NCBI GenBank assembly: GCA_017676145.1
Contig: GCA_017676145.1_3628.1
Strand: one strand, 5' to 3'
DNA from: a phage
Length of the DNA stretch: 64,000 bases
The translations under genes and the position numbers were made by a program. The notes beneath the pieces were generated by a model. It saw nothing but the letters and a program-made list of their open reading frames with translations, ran no database searches and was not told where the DNA came from. Below are positions 442 to 52,029 of the stretch, in pieces; position 1 is the stretch's first letter; every line of letters begins with the position of its first letter.

Positions 442-717
442 ATGACGAAAGAAGAGGCAGATGTATTAGACTTTGCATTAGAAGCTACGCAGGAGGCTTT
501 GGTGTTGGCTTGGAAAATGAACCAGCGTGCTGCAGAATGCAACCGCCGCATCAATGAGATTCTAGGCATGTCTATGTATGATTTCACTATGCATGCTGGA
601 GAGATTCCTGAATTAACTGCTGAGATGAATGATCTTGACAATAAAATTAATATCATTCTGAAGACAGCAGAAACAACTCACCAAACCGCCCGTAAATTTA
701 TCAACGAGAAGGTGTGA
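442..717 (+). CDS. hypothetical protein (91 aa)
   Basis: ORF with purine-rich RBS (caggagag) a few nt upstream of ATG; stop overlaps region of next start. Confidence 0.5.
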   Translation: MTKEEADVLDFALEATQEALVLAWKMNQRAAECNRRINEILGMSMYDFTMHAGEIPELTAEMNDLDNKINIILKTAETTHQTARKFINEKV

Positions 718-719
718 AT

Positions 720-1193
720 ATGGACTACAGCTACTGCGGAGAAGAAGTACCTTTTAACTACAGCAATCTCACCACGAGCAATCCATATGAGACTCGTCAC
801 GGCACACACATCATTGCTATTGACTTTGATGGAACGTTTAATGCGAGCCCTTTCATCTTCTCCCGCCTTATTAAGGACCTGAAGAAGGAAGGGTGGACAG
901 TCTATCTTGTGACTTTCCGATTCATAACTCAAGACAATGTGGACATCGAATACTGGCGCAAGGAGCTAGATGTTGGAGTGTTTTATACTGGAGGTGTTCA
1001 GAAGGCTGCTTATCTGGCTCAGTTTGATATCTACCCGGACATCTGGGTTGATGATTCTCCAGCTTGCATTCCAGCCAAGAATCAGCTAGAGTTTGCAATG
1101 AAGGAGATCAAGTATAAGTCTGACGCTAAACGTAACGGATGGCCCTTTATTATTGAAGATTACCCAGATCCTGAACCGGAGAAAGAGCCATGA
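720..1193 (+). CDS. HAD-superfamily phosphatase-like protein (possible nucleotidase or 3'-phosphatase)
   Basis: ATG at 720 preceded by gagaagg; N-terminal IIAIDFDGT matches HAD motif I (DxDG[TV]); later WVDDSP acidic motif; function inferred from motifs only. Confidence 0.5.
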   Translation: MDYSYCGEEVPFNYSNLTTSNPYETRHGTHIIAIDFDGTFNASPFIFSRLIKDLKKEGWTVYLVTFRFITQDNVDIEYWRKELDVGVFYTGGVQKAAYLAQFDIYPDIWVDDSPACIPAKNQLEFAMKEIKYKSDAKRNGWPFIIEDYPDPEPEKEP

Positions 1194-1360
1194 AACGAAG
1201 ATACCATTACTTGATGTGGAAGTTATATCAGGGTGCTGCTAAAACTTATCGCACCGTGTTTGGTAATGACAATCACTATATTGTGTTACACCTTGCCGCC
1301 ATTAAGCATCACAATGAGTGGATTCGTGCAATCGTAATAGGTGACAAAGACTTTAAGTAA
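1190..1360 (+). CDS. small hypothetical protein (56 aa), translationally coupled
   Basis: ATG at 1190 overlaps stop of upstream gene (ATGA); uninterrupted 56-codon frame ending TAA 1358-1360; below the ORF-track size cutoff. Confidence 0.3.
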   Translation: MKRRYHYLMWKLYQGAAKTYRTVFGNDNHYIVLHLAAIKHHNEWIRAIVIGDKDFK

Positions 1361-1411: not shown

Positions 1412-1792
1412 ATGTGCAAGTGTAAATCCTATAATTGGAAAGTGAAAGGTGCCAAGCATCAAAATGTTATCGTTGATGTGCCTAAAAAGCTCCGTGACGG
1501 CAAAAAACGTGTGTGCCTTGGTAAGTGCATGGCTAAACCTATCATGAGCTTGTGGGCAGCAGGATTGAAGACTCTAAACTGCTGCTGTGGTCATAACAAA
1601 GATGCTCCAAGCATCATTATCCCAGAGGATGCAGACCCTAAAGCTTATGCCAAAATACTGACTCGCTACCCCAGCACCTTTCTGATCGGAAAATGGTGTC
1701 ACGATGAACTTCAATGGTGGATAGCATACGGCAGCATAGGTACTGCTGTTGGCTTTCCAGCTTTGTCAGAGCGCTACGTCAAAGTGTCATAA
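1412..1792 (+). CDS. Cys-rich hypothetical protein (126 aa)
   Basis: ORF with GGAG RBS upstream; CxC...CxxxC...CCCGH cysteine pattern suggests metal binding; no family assigned. Confidence 0.5.
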   Translation: MCKCKSYNWKVKGAKHQNVIVDVPKKLRDGKKRVCLGKCMAKPIMSLWAAGLKTLNCCCGHNKDAPSIIIPEDADPKAYAKILTRYPSTFLIGKWCHDELQWWIAYGSIGTAVGFPALSERYVKVS

Positions 1793-1955
1793 TCGATTTT
1801 AAGGCCTCAAACGAGGCCTGTGCCTTCATAAACTTCCTACCTATGTGCGATTACCCTTCTGAATAAAATACCCTCTCAAATTGCTTAAAATTAAGCTTGA
1901 CACTAACACCAGATTTATATATGATTATCTCACCAACCCAACAGAGGAGATTGTC

Positions 1956-2363
1956 ATGGATAATCTTGCAAGTGTAAACGTAGAAATTGTTAAACTAAAG
2001 TTCTTGGGCTTTCGAGACCCTAATTCTCTAACAGCTATACTGATGGATACCCACTTCACACCGGGGAAAGAGTACACTGCCTTCCGTTATACTCACGGAG
2101 ATCACGAATCGGCCTATAGTGTGAATACAAACCTCGGTGAGGGATATTTCATCAGAGATATCACAGATCACTTGTGGGGTATGTGGGAATTGGTGGGAGA
2201 AGAGAATAAATCCCTTCCCAAAGAGATTTGGGTGCACACCTTCCACACAGGGAAGTTTGGTGGAACGGAGCATAAATCTATCCACTATGATGAAGGAAGT
2301 GCCATCAAGCAACAAGCTGTGCTTGGCGGATCTGTAGAAAAATTTGTTAAATGCGAGGACTGA
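1956..2363 (+). CDS. hypothetical protein (135 aa)
   Basis: Internal ATG at 1956 preceded by gaggag RBS preferred over the listed 1881 start; promoter-like TTGACA-17-TATGAT just upstream. Confidence 0.5.
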   Translation: MDNLASVNVEIVKLKFLGFRDPNSLTAILMDTHFTPGKEYTAFRYTHGDHESAYSVNTNLGEGYFIRDITDHLWGMWELVGEENKSLPKEIWVHTFHTGKFGGTEHKSIHYDEGSAIKQQAVLGGSVEKFVKCED

Positions 2364-2366
2364 GAA

Positions 2367-2567
2367 ATGGCTGATTTTTGTAAAGATTGCTCTGAAGAGT
2401 TGTTTGGCTTTGACTGCAAAGATTTGGAAGGTCTGATCACTGAGGATCAGTGGAAGGAAGGCTATGCAGCACCTGTTATTTGTGAAGGTTGTGGCTATAC
2501 CTATGTTGACCATAAAGGTAAGCGCGTCAAGCCGTCTGAAGATGGGGCATGTTGGGAGTATTACTAA
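2367..2567 (+). CDS. small zinc-ribbon-like protein (66 aa)
   Basis: Paired Cys motifs (CKDC ... CEGCG ... C); followed by a strong hairpin terminator. Confidence 0.5.
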   Translation: MADFCKDCSEELFGFDCKDLEGLITEDQWKEGYAAPVICEGCGYTYVDHKGKRVKPSEDGACWEYY

Positions 2568-2577
2568 CTATAAAAAG

Positions 2578-2615: not shown

Positions 2616-5600
2616 TTAACGAGAAAAGGTTGCGTAGGCTTCTAGACGATACTGCTGGTCACCAGGGAACATAACACCTATAGAGGCTGTCCCTAGAATC
2701 CTGCCTTCCTTTCCAGACTCCATTCTGAACCCTACCCATCCTGAACTCCTTGCAGCATCGATGTTGTCTCTATACCCGAAAGTGGCAAGATCGTCAACAC
2801 CAGCCCCAAACAGCAACTGAAGCTGACTTCTCGGAAGCCCTATAATTTCAGGAATATACGCACCAAAGTACACCATCTGCCCTACCTTAGGACCGCTGCC
2901 GTACTCCATCGGCTTGCTTGTAGAGAAAGTCTTCATACCAGAAGTCCCTGCCGGATTAGGATATGCCCCGTTTGTTGCTGTACCTATCCACATTCTCCAC
3001 TGTGGTGCCATCTGTTTGACAGTAAAAGATGTTGAAGACGTTTTGCGCCCTGCATCATCTGTAACTACAAACTTTATAGTGACATTCCCAGTAGCTTTAA
3101 ATGTTACCAGCCCTGTGGTAGCATCCACTGTTGCAATGTTGGTATTACTACTTTCCCAAGTCTTTCTGATTCCTGGCACATTGGAAGGGGTAATAGAAGG
3201 TTCCTGCATCTGCAGTTTACCACCTACAATCCCTATCCCGTTTCCTGGATTATACAACGCACCAACCTCGTCTACAATGTTACCTGCCTTGAGGCTGTAC
3301 TTTTTAGAGAAGTTGTAAGTGCCGTTATATGTGTGTGTCCCTGAGAAGGTTACATCTGCTTTTCCGTAAGAGATGCAAACCAAAGCATACTTCCTGTCAG
3401 GCAACGGTGCCCCAGTTTCTGGGTGAGTTTTACCCACCTGAAACACACTCGGGTCAGTGGAGTCTTGGCTATCACTAACGGAGTTTGGACCCCCCATCAG
3501 TTGTGACAGGCAATTCCTTACCCATGTCCAGTTATTATCGCTGGAGAAGTCCACAGTTAAATCAAACACAACCCACTCATTTGGCTTCCACACAGGTGTT
3601 GCAATGGACTTGCCTACACCGCCTCCTTGGAGTGTTGCCGACTGTTCAGTGATCAGGGCCGCGTAGGCCAGAGTTCCTAAACTCAGAGTTTGGCTTGCTG
3701 TCCTCACTACCTTAGAATCAGCATCTGTGAAGTTGTTGATGATCTGGAATGTGCCATAAGTGTTTTTACAGGTAATTCTGGCGTTCAGCGTGTCAATCTT
3801 CCTCACATCTGCCATAGCAGTGTTAGACACAGAGAAGTCAGAAGCTTTAGCTGAGTTTGCCGCAACAGCAGGATCAACGTTAAGAGTTGCGTTGAACTGA
3901 CAAGCTGGGGTAACCAGCAGCTTGTTATCACCTATTTGCTTCCATGAAACACTTTGAACAGGGAGATTCCATTTAATACCTGAGAAAACTTTAGCAACCC
4001 TTGGCCCCAGAGCTCCAGTCCTGGTGTCTTTACAGCACATGGACATGGTGATCGTTGACGGAGTGGCCTGACCAAACAATTGCTGTGCTTTTGCAGAGGA
4101 CATGGTGTAGAAATTGTCCTTAACAAACTCATCAGCCGCCAATGATCCGTCAGATCTCCACCATTGCACCTGGTACCCTGTCTTATCCCAGCCACCGACC
4201 TGCTTCAGGTCCTCCCAGGAGATTTCCAGATCCCCAGTGGTAGGGTTGATTGCAGCAGTTCCTGGTGTTCCAGAGGACCATAATGGGATATCGAACCATG
4301 CTGGTTTAACAGATTGTACTGCGTTCGGTCCTATTGCAGCAGCAAGTTGCTGACCCATCAACACACGAGAATCTTTTACCAAGCCCCATTCAATCATGGA
4401 CCCAGAGTAGCCTTCTTTCTTATAGGCCGAAGATCCGTTCAAATGGATAAGCCTGCTGCAGTCGAAACCATACGCCCCGCCACCGTTAGGATCTGCAAAG
4501 TTAGTTATGATTCTATCCCTTATATTTTTCCATGCCCTGCCTCCAATCTCGTAGTCATGGTCATAACATCTCTGCAGCGTTGTCCAGCAAATGATTGCCA
4601 TTCTTCTGCCACCAGTAAACCCGAAAGCGCCGTCATTCAACTCTTTCCACAGATAGCAGTTAGTTGCCCACATAGCTCTGTGGATATTGAACCAGTTTAT
4701 AGACTTAGCAGAATTGTCCCACTGAGTTCCCGGTAATTCAGGCCACACTGCATTAACCAACATGTCTTCTGTTCCTGCATCAACTAAGAACCCTCTCACC
4801 TTTTTACCCATACCTGCCCTGTCTTTAGCAATCCAATTGCCAAACAGTCTCAGTTTTGGACCATAAACGACATCCTCTGGGTGCTCAAAAGAAACATACT
4901 TTAAGTAGATTGTTGGGTCACCGTAGGTGCCATCACAAACACTTTTGTGCATGTTTTCGCCAAGATCTAGACGAAGCCCTGTCACCACTTTAGACGTGTC
5001 GGTGAATTTGTCTGTTAAATCAAATTCATACCACCACCATCCACCACCAAGCATAAATTTCTTGCATCGAGCATTGTCTGTATCAGATATTCTCTTATCC
5101 CCTGCAAAAGGTGAATCAGCAAACTGATAATGCAGAGCAGTCTCGAATAAATGTGTTGAGGTTCCGTTTTCTGCAAGAACTTGCTTACCTATTAAGTCGC
5201 ACTTAATGATCATCACAACACGTTTGTACCCGTTTGTTACTGGAACTTGCATAGACATGGATGTCCCATCCATGTTTGATCTCAGCACGGTCATGACGAT
5301 ATAAGGGTCAACGGCATTGCCCAGAGTTTCAGGACCAGGGATTATCTTGTACTTCTTAACCTGCCCCATAAACCTGTCACTGGCGTAAGTTGCAGCCTCG
5401 AAGCAAGATCCTCCATTAGGTAGTTCGCCAGGACCCCAGAAAAATGCGCCATAACAGTTATAAAACCACTTGTTAGGATCGTATTTGTTCTTGAAGGTCT
5501 GAACCTCGTTAGCCTGTTTTGTCAAGAAAACCTGAGTATCTGTGAAGATTGCAGGATTCACTCTTGCCTGTCGATCAGCATATCCAGGTTGGTTAAACCA

Positions 5601-49241: not shown

Positions 49242-49560
49242 CGTTTATGTTCAGGCAAGGTCGCTAGTCTTGCCCCGCCATTTTCAGGCAGCTGCATGTC
49301 TCCATGCAGACCAGACTATATCTTATAAGCTATAACAACAGCTTACCCTCCCGTTTCGAATCGCTTGATTCTACGTCTTTCGACTAGTCGTTGAACGTTC
49401 ATCCTCTCGGATGCTTCGCTGCGGATTATCTAAATCAACACTCTGTTACCATACCTTCGATCTCTCTTCGAAGCCTCTATTATGTTACCATAACAGGTTG
49501 GTGGTGTTAATAATAAAGATTTCCCCGCAATTAGGGAGGTTTTACGAGAGCTACAAATTA
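49242..49560 (-). mobile_element. group I intron 1 in terminase large subunit gene (no ORF)
   Basis: Minus-strand P AATTGCGGGGAA (49521-49532), Q AATCCGCAGC (49418-49427), R GTTCAACGACTA (49385-49396), S GATATAGTC (49316-49324); exon ends GGT followed by TAA, as in T4 td-type introns. Confidence 0.75.
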
Positions 49561-49986
49561 ACCCTCATCGAAGCAAACCATGGTGTACTCAAGCCCTTGA
49601 TGGTTAAGCTTATCTTGGACATACTCCATGTGGCAGTATTTTACAACGGCCCCTTTTTTGCTCCTGTCCCACTTGCCAGTGCTCGGATCAAACCGTGGAA
49701 AAATAAACTTATGATCCTTCTCTCTGAACTTTGGTTTAATGTTTTCAGGCAGATCACTGTAAATAGCTACTGCTTTAGGCCATAGACCTCCTTCACCCTC
49801 CAGCTGCGGGGTTGTTCTTCGGAACATAACCACAGAGCTGTGTGGGTCATCAATAATTTTAAGTGGCATTAGCTGCAAGAGGAACGACTTGCCAGAACCG
49901 GCTGCACCTCCGATCACCAAAATATCTGCATCGTTCTCAAGGATCATCTTCTGCTTTTCAGAACACGGTCCGTAAATCTTAGACAT
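49561..49986 (-). CDS. terminase large subunit, exon 1 (ATPase domain)
   Basis: Walker A GGAAGSGKS and Walker B MVCFDEG; start ATG overlaps the o-spanin stop (TAATG). Confidence 0.75.
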
Positions 49987-51089: not shown

Positions 51090-51166
51090 TGGTCTCCACG
51101 GAGTGATTCGAACACTCGACCTCCTGATCCCAAATCAGGCGCTCTACCAAGCTGAGCTACGCGGAG
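51090..51166 (-). tRNA. tRNA-Pro (anticodon UGG)
   Basis: Manual cloverleaf: acceptor CTCCGCG/CGTGGAG (C1-G72), D-arm GCTC/GAGC, anticodon loop TTTGGGA, T-arm GAGTG-TTCGAAT-CACTC, encoded CCA. Confidence 0.8.
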
Positions 51167-51177
51167 TATTTATAATT

Positions 51178-51252
51178 TGGTGGCCCTGGGTGGAATTGAA
51201 CCACCGTCTGGCGATTATGAGTCGCTTGCTTGAACCTTCCAGCTACAGGGCC
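51178..51252 (-). tRNA. tRNA-Met (anticodon CAU; elongator Met or Ile2 type cannot be distinguished)
   Basis: Manual fold: acceptor GGCCCTG/CAGGGCC, anticodon loop CTCATAA, T-arm GGTGG-TTCAATT-CCACC, encoded CCA. Confidence 0.75.
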
Positions 51253-51253
51253 A

Positions 51254-51329
51254 TGGTGCTGATGGCAGGACTTGAACCTGCAACCTATTGATTACAAATC
51301 AATTGCACTACCGATTGTGCTACATCAGC
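51254..51329 (-). tRNA. tRNA-Thr (anticodon UGU)
   Basis: Manual fold: acceptor GCTGATG/CATCAGC, D-arm GCAC/GTGC, anticodon stem ATTGA/TCAAT with loop TTTGTAA, T-arm GCAGG-TTCAAGT-CCTGC, encoded CCA. Confidence 0.8.
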
Positions 51330-51335
51330 AAAAAG

Positions 51336-51440
51336 GTGCTAGGTGATGGAATCGAACCACCTATGTATTCAACGACTACCTCGTCTATTTTCAGGATTAA
51401 AAATCCTCGCCCTTGCCAAAGGGCTTACCTAGCGCAATAT
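51336..51440 (-). ncRNA. tRNA-like element, non-canonical (pseudo-tRNA or small stable RNA)
   Basis: Has 7-bp acceptor-like stem GCTAGGT/ACCTAGC, D-like arm GCCC/GGGC and T-arm GGTGG-TTCGATT-CCATC, but no 7-nt anticodon loop and ~30 nt extra between anticodon-like and T arms; CCA not fully encoded. Confidence 0.35.
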
Positions 51441-51531
51441 GTTGACCATGTGGCTAGTCGGCGATGACGACTGTAACATTTGATAATCCGGTTCTGCTTC
51501 CGGCTTTCGCTTAATTACAAGGTCAACAATG

Positions 51532-51622
51532 TGGCGGAGAGTAATGGAATCGAACCATCATCGAGTCATCCTCAACGGGACGGTTTTCAAGACCGCTTGA
51601 GCACCATTGCTCCCTACCCTCC
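51532..51622 (-). tRNA. tRNA-Ser (anticodon UGA), type II with long variable arm
   Basis: Acceptor GGAGGGT/ACTCTCC, anticodon arm GCGGT-CTTGAAA-ACCGT nearly identical to E. coli tRNA-Ser(UGA) as recalled, ~20-nt variable arm, discriminator G, encoded CCA. Confidence 0.75.
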
Positions 51623-51736
51623 TTTATAAATTACACTGATAATGACACTGATTTTCGAGCAGTTAGTGACTAGTATAAACGACGATAAATATCAATGCCA
51701 TTATCTGTATGATTTATGCATTTAAAAATATAAATT

Positions 51737-51824
51737 TGGTGGTGAGTGATGGAGTCGAACCACCCGAATCGCAATGATAACAGATTTACAGTCTGCCCCG
51801 CTACCCCTACGGAATTAACTCACC
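51737..51824 (-). tRNA. tRNA-Tyr (anticodon GUA), type II
   Basis: Acceptor GGTGAGT/ACTCACC, anticodon stem CAGA/TCTG with loop CTGTAAA, long variable arm, T-arm GGTGG-TTCGACT-CCATC, encoded CCA. Confidence 0.75.
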
Positions 51825-51954
51825 TAAATACTAATATTTAAATTCTTTTTAAAATAGCTAGTGTTCTCACCACTAACTATGAGGTATCGGTAAAGTGGTT
51901 ACCGCCACTTGCCGAAGATTTACTCTGCTAAAGTAAGCTACATTAAAAAGAACT

Positions 51955-52029
51955 TGGCACCCCGTACTGGACTCGAACCAGTGTCAACGGCTTAGAAGGC
52001 CGCTGCTTTATCCACTAAGCTAACAGGGC
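51955..52029 (-). tRNA. tRNA-Arg (anticodon UCU)
   Basis: Acceptor GCCCTGT/ACGGGGT (two G-U pairs), D-arm GCTT/AAGC, anticodon stem GCGGC/GCCGT with loop CTTCTAA, T-arm ACTGG-TTCGAGT-CCAGT, encoded CCA. Confidence 0.7.

Follow-up and report, generated by a model that had tools for sequence, protein, structure and literature searches.

Comparative analysis of a 56-codon ortholog of rV5 gene 22 located downstream of a putative HAD-type phosphatase gene in a Vequintavirus coliphage

The closest described counterpart of the small open reading frame analysed here is gene 22 of phage rV5, which was reported to encode a protein of 56 amino acids (6.9 kDa, pI 8.6) and for which neither a homolog nor a function was listed (PMC3606486 Table S3). 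Genes 11-26 of rV5 were proposed to form one transcription unit, distinct from the late structural genes 27-66, and the sigma-70-type promoters P020 (before gene 20) and P025 (before gene 25) as well as a bidirectional terminator after gene 26 were assigned to this unit (PMC3606486). The product of gene 22 was not among the proteins flagged with mass spectrometry evidence in the virion (PMC3606486).

The window, that is, the whole 64,000-nucleotide stretch of phage DNA that was analysed (GenBank assembly GCA_017676145.1), belonged to a Vequintavirus (rV5-like) coliphage, and the region of interest was 91-97% identical to more than 100 Vequintavirus genomes. The best DNA match over positions 400-2400 was phage YP-6 (96.6%), and the window was not FV3 itself. 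The 56-codon frame, referred to as ORF56, occupied the slot after rV5 gene 21 and before gene 24, and the layout was identical in FV3, rV5, FFH2, WM, and 16 further loci. The tblastn analysis revealed the protein at full length and intact in 116 phage records with 77-100% identity. It was 100% identical to FV3_00021 (YP_007006192.1), its exact sequence was present as UniRef100_H6W7U2 ("Uncharacterized protein"), and rV5 gp22 (gene 22, ABI79093.1) had an equal length of 56 aa with 77% identity. Further annotated orthologs included FFH2 ORF21 and bas56_0044, and all of them were labelled "hypothetical protein". The match to phrog_12006, a PHROG of unknown function, had an E value of 4.3e-40, with residues 1-56 aligned on profile positions 1-56 of 56. 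Nothing substantive differs between ORF56 and rV5 gp22, FV3_00021 or phrog_12006, which represent the same gene. ORF56 is an already annotated gene that has been carried as a "hypothetical protein" in public phage genomes since 2006, and it is not a discovery. The preliminary description of this DNA had called the frame unlisted; this holds for the size-filtered ORF track from which it was absent, but not for GenBank/RefSeq, where it is an annotated CDS (FV3_00021, rV5 ORF 22). The frame was left unannotated in a few records (PDX, phiWec193), and the Pr121LW record contained a shorter version called from Met9. As a separate observation, 15 "Campylobacter phage" GenBank records (MG0656xx, host C. 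jejuni) were more than 91% identical to rV5-like coliphages in this region, which suggests mislabelled hosts or coliphage carry-over in the isolates.

The features of the region, in the coordinates of the window, were as follows.

442-717, plus strand: 91-aa gene (g91), rV5 gene 20, the first of the conserved triad g91 / HAD-like gene / ORF56
720-1193, plus strand: upstream partner gene, rV5 gene 21, 157 aa, putative HAD-type phosphatase
1178-1181, plus strand: GGAG, Shine-Dalgarno (SD)-like, 8 nt 5' of the ORF56 ATG and within the final codons of the upstream gene
1190-1193, plus strand: ATGA start/stop overlap shared by ORF56 and the upstream gene
1190-1360, plus strand: ORF56, 56-codon CDS running from ATG to TAA
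1361-1411, plus strand: spacer between ORF56 and the 126-aa gene, indel-variable in relatives, ORF56 itself being free of indels
1412-1792, plus strand: 126-aa gene (g126), the next gene 3' of ORF56
1897-1925, plus strand: sigma-70 promoter TTGACA-17-TATGAT, 11/12 consensus, equivalent of rV5 P025 (PMC3606486 Table S4)
2578-2599, no strand assigned: bidirectional rho-independent terminator hairpin, rV5 t026/t027, closing the gene 11-26 unit (PMC3606486)

The start codon of ORF56 (ATG, 1190-1192) overlaps the stop codon (TGA, 1191-1193) of the upstream ORF at 720-1193, and the frame is closed by TAA at 1358-1360. The encoded protein, MKRRYHYLMWKLYQGAAKTYRTVFGNDNHYIVLHLAAIKHHNEWIRAIVIGDKDFK, includes the peptides TVFGNDNHYIVLHLAAIK, HHNEWIR, and AIVIGDK. 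The preliminary description had reported a 56-codon frame opened by an ATG overlapping the upstream stop and lying under the size limit of the ORF track; this was exact in the sequence (1190-1360), the 56 codons being below the 60-aa cut-off. The same description took the frame as the explanation of a gap, and a conserved gene could indeed be placed over the greater part of the 218 nt that separate the upstream stop (1193) from the following ATG (1412), with a 51-nt spacer remaining before the next gene. The conservation of the N-terminal residues (Y5 invariant; residues 2-4 basic) supports ATG 1190, rather than Met9, as the true start in the sequences compared. No paralogs of ORF56 were found in the window.

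The coding status of ORF56 was evaluated within the genus using 20 loci fetched across the identity range together with the window. In all 21 Vequintavirus copies (21/21), the ATG, frame, length, and stop of ORF56 were kept. Selection statistics were obtained from 17 distinct DNA copies by the Nei-Gojobori dN/dS method with a codon bootstrap of 2000 replicates. The 58 variable sites were distributed as 17, 12, and 29 at codon positions 1, 2, and 3, respectively, representing a third-position excess (binomial P=0.006). The dN/dS of ORF56 was 0.17 (95% CI 0.09-0.32), with 0 of the 2000 bootstrap replicates reaching 1, and the other two frames of the same DNA gave values of 0.85 and 0.77. Stops and indels were absent from the 17 distinct copies, and the neutral probability of the frame staying stop-free was approximately 0.02 (at least 65 substitutions). 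In contrast to the indel-free ORF56, the adjacent 51-nt spacer showed several indels (deletions and replacements) among relatives. The omega values of the neighbours within Vequintavirus were 0.036 for g91, 0.038 for the HAD-like gene, and 0.083 for g126, so that the constraint on ORF56 within the genus was 2-5 times weaker than that on the neighbouring genes.

Two other frames in the same interval were considered and rejected. The rV5 "ORF 23" and JES2013 "Ec2_0022" are annotated CDSs that overlap gene 22 in frame +1 relative to ORF56 (1544-1693 in both locus L005 and locus L013). The corresponding frame in the window (1233-1337, plus strand) is shortened to 34 aa; its omega was approximately 0.85 and its stops were variable, and the annotation is probably spurious. 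An antisense 58-aa ORF (1286-1462) changed in length and sequence from genome to genome.

Distant relatives of ORF56 were identified from metagenomic sequences. When 1.84 billion representative proteins were searched exhaustively with an HMMER profile, three representatives were recovered, and a word-indexed profile search of a 5.8-billion-protein database revealed 14 clusters. All of these belonged to the ORF56 family, and the IMG/VR search gave one locus. Three subfamilies could be distinguished, with proteins of 56 aa (the Vequintavirus type), 60-62 aa, and 53 aa. Members of the 60-62-aa subfamily (P0009, P0014, P0015, and P0017) were 46-53% identical to ORF56 by BLASTP. Members of the 53-aa subfamily (P0016, P0018, and the proteins in loci L022 and L023) were 32-38% identical depending on the alignment method, and their N-terminal half was clearly homologous to ORF56 while the C-terminal half had diverged. 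The overall identity range of the two divergent metagenomic subfamilies was 32-54%, and neither type was found in the cultured-phage collection. Both could be matched to phrog_12006 (P0009, E=2e-17; the 53-aa protein of L022, E=2e-7). The P0009 cluster consisted of 151 member sequences on contigs of up to approximately 147 kb. The alignment of P0009 with ORF56 was ungapped, with 47% identity and 76% similarity, and the flanking genes of its contig were 46% (g91) and 60% (HAD-like gene) identical to those of the window; therefore, at this larger divergence ORF56 and its neighbours are conserved to a similar degree. Omega was 0.17 in the 60-62-aa subfamily and 0.14 in the 53-aa subfamily, and the off-frame values ranged from 0.86 to 1.64. 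The omega values obtained for g91 among the 60-62-aa loci and for the HAD-like gene among the 53-aa loci were left out as unreliable, since the lengths differ and the comparison was ungapped.

The gene order of a 90-92-aa gene, a 157-163-aa HAD-like gene, and the small ORF was present in nine out of nine divergent loci (L021-L029), and the HAD-like gene was always immediately upstream of the ORF56 homologs. Downstream, the small ORF was followed by the 126-aa gene in the 53-aa subfamily, whereas the 60-62-aa subfamily had a promoter with tRNAs, together with YadA-anchor and other genes. In locus L021 of the latter, a consensus promoter (TTGACA-17-TATAAT) replaced the 126-aa gene after the small ORF, and two apparent tRNA genes could be recognised by reading of the sequence in the same interval (4190-4440); a YadA-anchor gene and an IS605 OrfB/Cas12f-like (TnpB) gene were located further downstream.

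The preliminary description had named conservation in related genomes as a check on the frame. ORF56 was found to be conserved, with purifying selection in all three subfamilies (omega 0.14-0.17). A chance ORF in a non-coding spacer or leader, with no functional product, would agree with a frame that is short and has no known domain, and with the outcome of the literature search, in which no Vequintavirus transcriptome, Ribo-seq data set or proteome of infected cells that includes ORF56 came to light. The treatment of the frame in PDX and phiWec193 (unannotated) and in Pr121LW (started at Met9) points in the same direction. However, a chance ORF would hardly show such low omega in three independent subfamilies against approximately 0.8-1.6 off-frame, nor the identity and similarity retained by P0009 where the flanking genes are themselves only 46-60% identical, nor freedom from indels beside an indel-rich spacer, nor a conserved ATG with an upstream SD-like stretch. 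An RNA element was rejected as an explanation of the region, which matched no Rfam family and had no excess structure at the junction; the sole match of the Rfam search was a sub-threshold chance match on the opposite strand, in the spacer. The comparative data effectively refute the chance-ORF reading, which is now barely credible. As judged from these sequence comparisons, ORF56 is very probably a real protein-coding gene, one that databases already list; it is orthologous to rV5 gene 22 and FV3_00021 and belongs to phrog_12006.

The ATGA stop/start overlap is a general mechanism of translational coupling in bacterial and phage operons. The ORF56 junction resembles the textbook arrangement in its 4-nt overlap and in an SD inside the upstream CDS at canonical spacing. 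It differs in that the overlap varies among members of the genus and is missing from some relatives, and in that no SD-sequestering structure was found; folding of the junction RNA against shuffled controls revealed no unusual structure and no SD masking beyond chance (z=+0.54). The GGAG was invariant in 21/21 Vequintavirus copies. The ATGA overlap (-4 nt) was present in nine of these copies, including the window and FV3, and in the other 12, including rV5, a single A-to-T change from GAG AAA to GAG TAA placed the upstream stop 5 nt before the ATG. The junction table comprised ten junctions, namely the L021-L029 loci with the window and rV5 included. Among them, the 60-62-aa subfamily had an 11-nt overlap, whereas the 53-aa subfamily was mixed: the ATGA (-4 nt) junction occurred also in L022 and L029, and L023 and L028 had a 49-52-nt spacer in which the SD-like element was a G-run followed by TAA. 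The divergent loci carried their own purine-rich SD-like stretch (GAGGAG, GGAGAGG or a G-run), and an ATG with such a stretch upstream was seen in every case examined. With junctions of four kinds (-4, +5, -11, and about +50 nt) in the loci compared, coupling is possible yet not conserved. Termination-reinitiation coupling is plausible in this genome, where ribosomes ending the upstream gene could re-initiate at the ATGA, and ORF56 would be translated without depending on the overlap. Judged from the junctions, coupling is not conserved and is probably not necessary. The earlier wording "translationally coupled" thus stands as far as the ATGA overlap present here is concerned, but does not extend to the majority of the 21 copies or to all relatives.

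On its downstream side, the sub-operon of genes 20-24, which holds ORF56, is bounded by the promoter at 1897-1925. Because ORF56 lies in the gene 11-26 unit and gene 22 was unflagged in the virion analysis, it is presumably a non-structural gene expressed from host-type promoters. Its protein would be made inside the infected cell and would not be a virion component, and an "early" timing is suggested by the promoter type and the gene layout in the rV5 paper. Several further observations were made around this unit. A hairpin without a T-run (AGGCCTC-AAAC-GAGGCCT, approximately 1801-1818, plus strand) directly follows the stop of the 126-aa gene and precedes the promoter at 1897-1925; it may be a processing site or a weak terminator between two sub-operons. 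Downstream of the 126-aa gene, FV3 (L001 2025-3168) carries different genes annotated as similar to those of phages Phi1 and RB49, where the window (1900-2570) has the rV5-type 135-aa and 66-aa genes, demonstrating local mosaicism. The 126-aa gene is split into two CDSs in SYGMH1 (L006 1723-2104), and V18 (L011 1031-1500) has no annotated HAD-like CDS and an ungapped identity falling to 35%; ORF56 is intact in both. These flanking-gene defects are likely frameshifts, due either to sequencing errors or to genuine pseudogenisation.

Elsewhere in the window, a group I catalytic intron was detected at 49292-49570 on the minus strand (Rfam RF00028, 85 bits, E=3e-20). In rV5, this region is reported to carry a large-terminase gene that is spliced and has an HNH homing endonuclease (PMC3606486 Table S3). 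A tRNA cluster was located at 51090-52029 on the minus strand, with solid calls for Pro, Met, Thr, and Arg. It contained an odd tRNA-like element of 97-99 nt (51335-51433), for which ARAGORN gave a 4-base anticodon "atcc" and Rfam tRNA scored 35.5 bits against a gathering threshold of 29. Each tool also made a call that the other lacked: ARAGORN a tRNA-Ser at 51532-51622, which was absent from the Rfam gathering list, and Rfam a tRNA at 51740-51824, which ARAGORN did not list.

The upstream gene (720-1193) had been described as HAD-like in the preliminary description. The motifs D35-F-D37-x-T39, T65, K95, and D111-D112 were present in the HAD order and did not vary among 10 homologs with identities as low as 56%. 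Homologs of the gene were found in 337 phage records, a few of which were annotated as "phosphatase", "HAD-like domain protein" or "polynucleotide kinase". The searches against Pfam (nothing at E<=1) and NCBIfam gave no match, and those against the PDB (phmmer and profile hmmsearch) gave chance hits only. The AlphaFold2 model was poor (pLDDT 53), with a beta-alpha-beta order in the core, and the best Foldseek matches of this low-confidence model included the HAD-fold entries 3ewi, 2voy_I, 2zos, and 8hvq, all at E>=0.06. The invariant motifs and the annotations of distant homologs speak for the label, but no Pfam, NCBIfam or PDB sequence match and no confident fold match accompany them; "HAD-like" appears reasonable but is not established.

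The AlphaFold2 model of ORF56, which was built on a shallow alignment of 8 close sequences, revealed a two-helix hairpin with helices at residues 2-24 and 27-49 (mean pLDDT 80, pTM 0.57). The residues conserved in all subfamilies (Y5, M9, W10, K11, Y13, Y20, G25, D27, L33, W44, and I45) were largely at i/i+3-4 spacing, consistent with a hairpin core and an FG-x-D turn. The 56-aa and 60-62-aa subfamilies also shared an HH-x-E motif and a C-terminal G-D-(K/R)-D-F tail, which had lower model confidence and could be a short binding motif. The family proteins were hydrophilic (GRAVY -0.2 to -0.9) and aromatic-rich, with no Cys and a pI of 8.1-10.0, and the negative GRAVY argues against a transmembrane segment in ORF56. 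The predicted product would be a soluble, mostly basic protein of 6.9 kDa with two antiparallel helices, an FG-x-D turn, and an aromatic core seam. No match to ORF56 was found in Pfam or NCBIfam, and neither ORF56 nor P0009 matched PADLOC-DB (defence/anti-defence). The PHROGs search gave only phrog_12006, and Foldseek of the hairpin against the PDB and BFVD returned its own BFVD entry, all other matches having E>1. A PDB profile match to 7uek "OT3" was artefactual, as it was made up of two weak stretches that repeat (per-domain E 16-17).

Many small, lineage-restricted phage accessory proteins modulate a target by direct contact. ORF56 may likewise be a small binding protein that acts on its own and modulates a protein of the host or the phage through direct contact; this is the most likely role, held tentatively at somewhat less than even confidence, because the protein is small, forms a predicted helical hairpin, is confined to one phage lineage, evolves faster than the flanking enzymes, and is encoded among small ORFans within a non-structural unit. 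Functional analogies are offered by lambda CIII, lambda Kil, T7 Gp0.4, and ColE1 Rop, which are small helical phage or plasmid regulators and share with ORF56 a length of approximately 50-65 aa, a helical (in ORF56, predicted) and non-structural nature, and, as proposed for ORF56, direct binding to a macromolecular target. However, ORF56 has no sequence or fold match to them, and membership is not claimed. The helical hairpin fold class includes Rop-type RNA binders, and a small basic nucleic-acid-binding protein, whose hairpin would dimerise to a four-helix bundle and regulate phage or host transcripts or DNA, would agree with the predicted hairpin and with the pI of 8.1-10.0 and basic N-terminus (MKRRY...) in all subfamilies. 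This role is improbable: Foldseek against the PDB gave nothing significant and no Rop-like match, the conserved residues form mostly an aromatic/hydrophobic core and not a basic surface, and the net charge is only about +1 in several members.

The main rival to the stand-alone binding protein would make ORF56 a dedicated partner of the neighbouring HAD-type phosphatase, acting as a regulatory or specificity subunit, a chaperone or an inhibitor, where the close adjacency or overlap would keep both proteins made together. ORF56 directly follows the HAD-like gene in every locus of the three subfamilies while the downstream neighbours change, although such synteny among closely related phages may simply be inherited. 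Its start lies at most 11 nt from the upstream stop in most lineages, and ORF56 is basic where the C-terminal tail of the HAD-like protein is acidic and proline-rich; however, ORF56 evolves faster than the enzyme, and it is not obligatory for it because the enzyme is present in 337 phage records and ORF56 in about 116, all Vequintavirus. The sister genera bear on this reading from both sides. In Seunavirus, Avunavirus, and Mydovirus, the HAD-like gene is followed, either directly or 1-2 genes later, by an ORF of 49-52 aa that has an "FGN" turn. These ORFs (GAP31_041, Av05_0023, KpS8 gp119, and KE23 CDS0068) resemble ORF56 in size and in their position downstream of a HAD-like homolog; their first segment is aromatic, and an invariant F-G-N turn leads to a second segment that contains W/Y. 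They nevertheless belong to another PHROG (11776), and KpS8 and KE23, two of the four phages, have other genes between the HAD-like gene and the small ORF. Homology between ORF56 and these ORFs was rejected statistically (HMMER E 0.12-0.92 against a database of 5 sequences; hhalign probability 0.45%, with 5 columns aligned), and the PHROG search of ORF56 gave no match to phrog_11776. A partnership with the phosphatase is on balance considered unlikely. Its widest form, a conserved two-gene module of a small hairpin protein and a HAD-type phosphatase across Vequintavirinae in which a fast-evolving partner regulates or retargets the enzyme, is a decidedly more doubtful proposal. If true, the phosphatase might be retargeted, for example, towards a host nucleotide or defence signalling molecule, and phrog_12006 and the positionally equivalent phrog_11776 would have diverged beyond recognition or been recruited convergently.

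To what was known of rV5 gp22, this analysis adds selection statistics, two metagenomic subfamilies, a hairpin fold prediction, and the finding that the junction varies. ORF56 represents a genuine gene of less than 60 aa that was missed by a size cut-off, and small-ORF cut-offs lose real phage genes of this kind; beyond annotation quality, the result matters little. The ORFan family rV5 gp22 / phrog_12006 is under selection, includes two metagenomic subfamilies that had not been linked before, and shows tight linkage with a putative HAD phosphatase. This linkage provides a testable starting point for the function of a small gene in therapeutic rV5-like phages.
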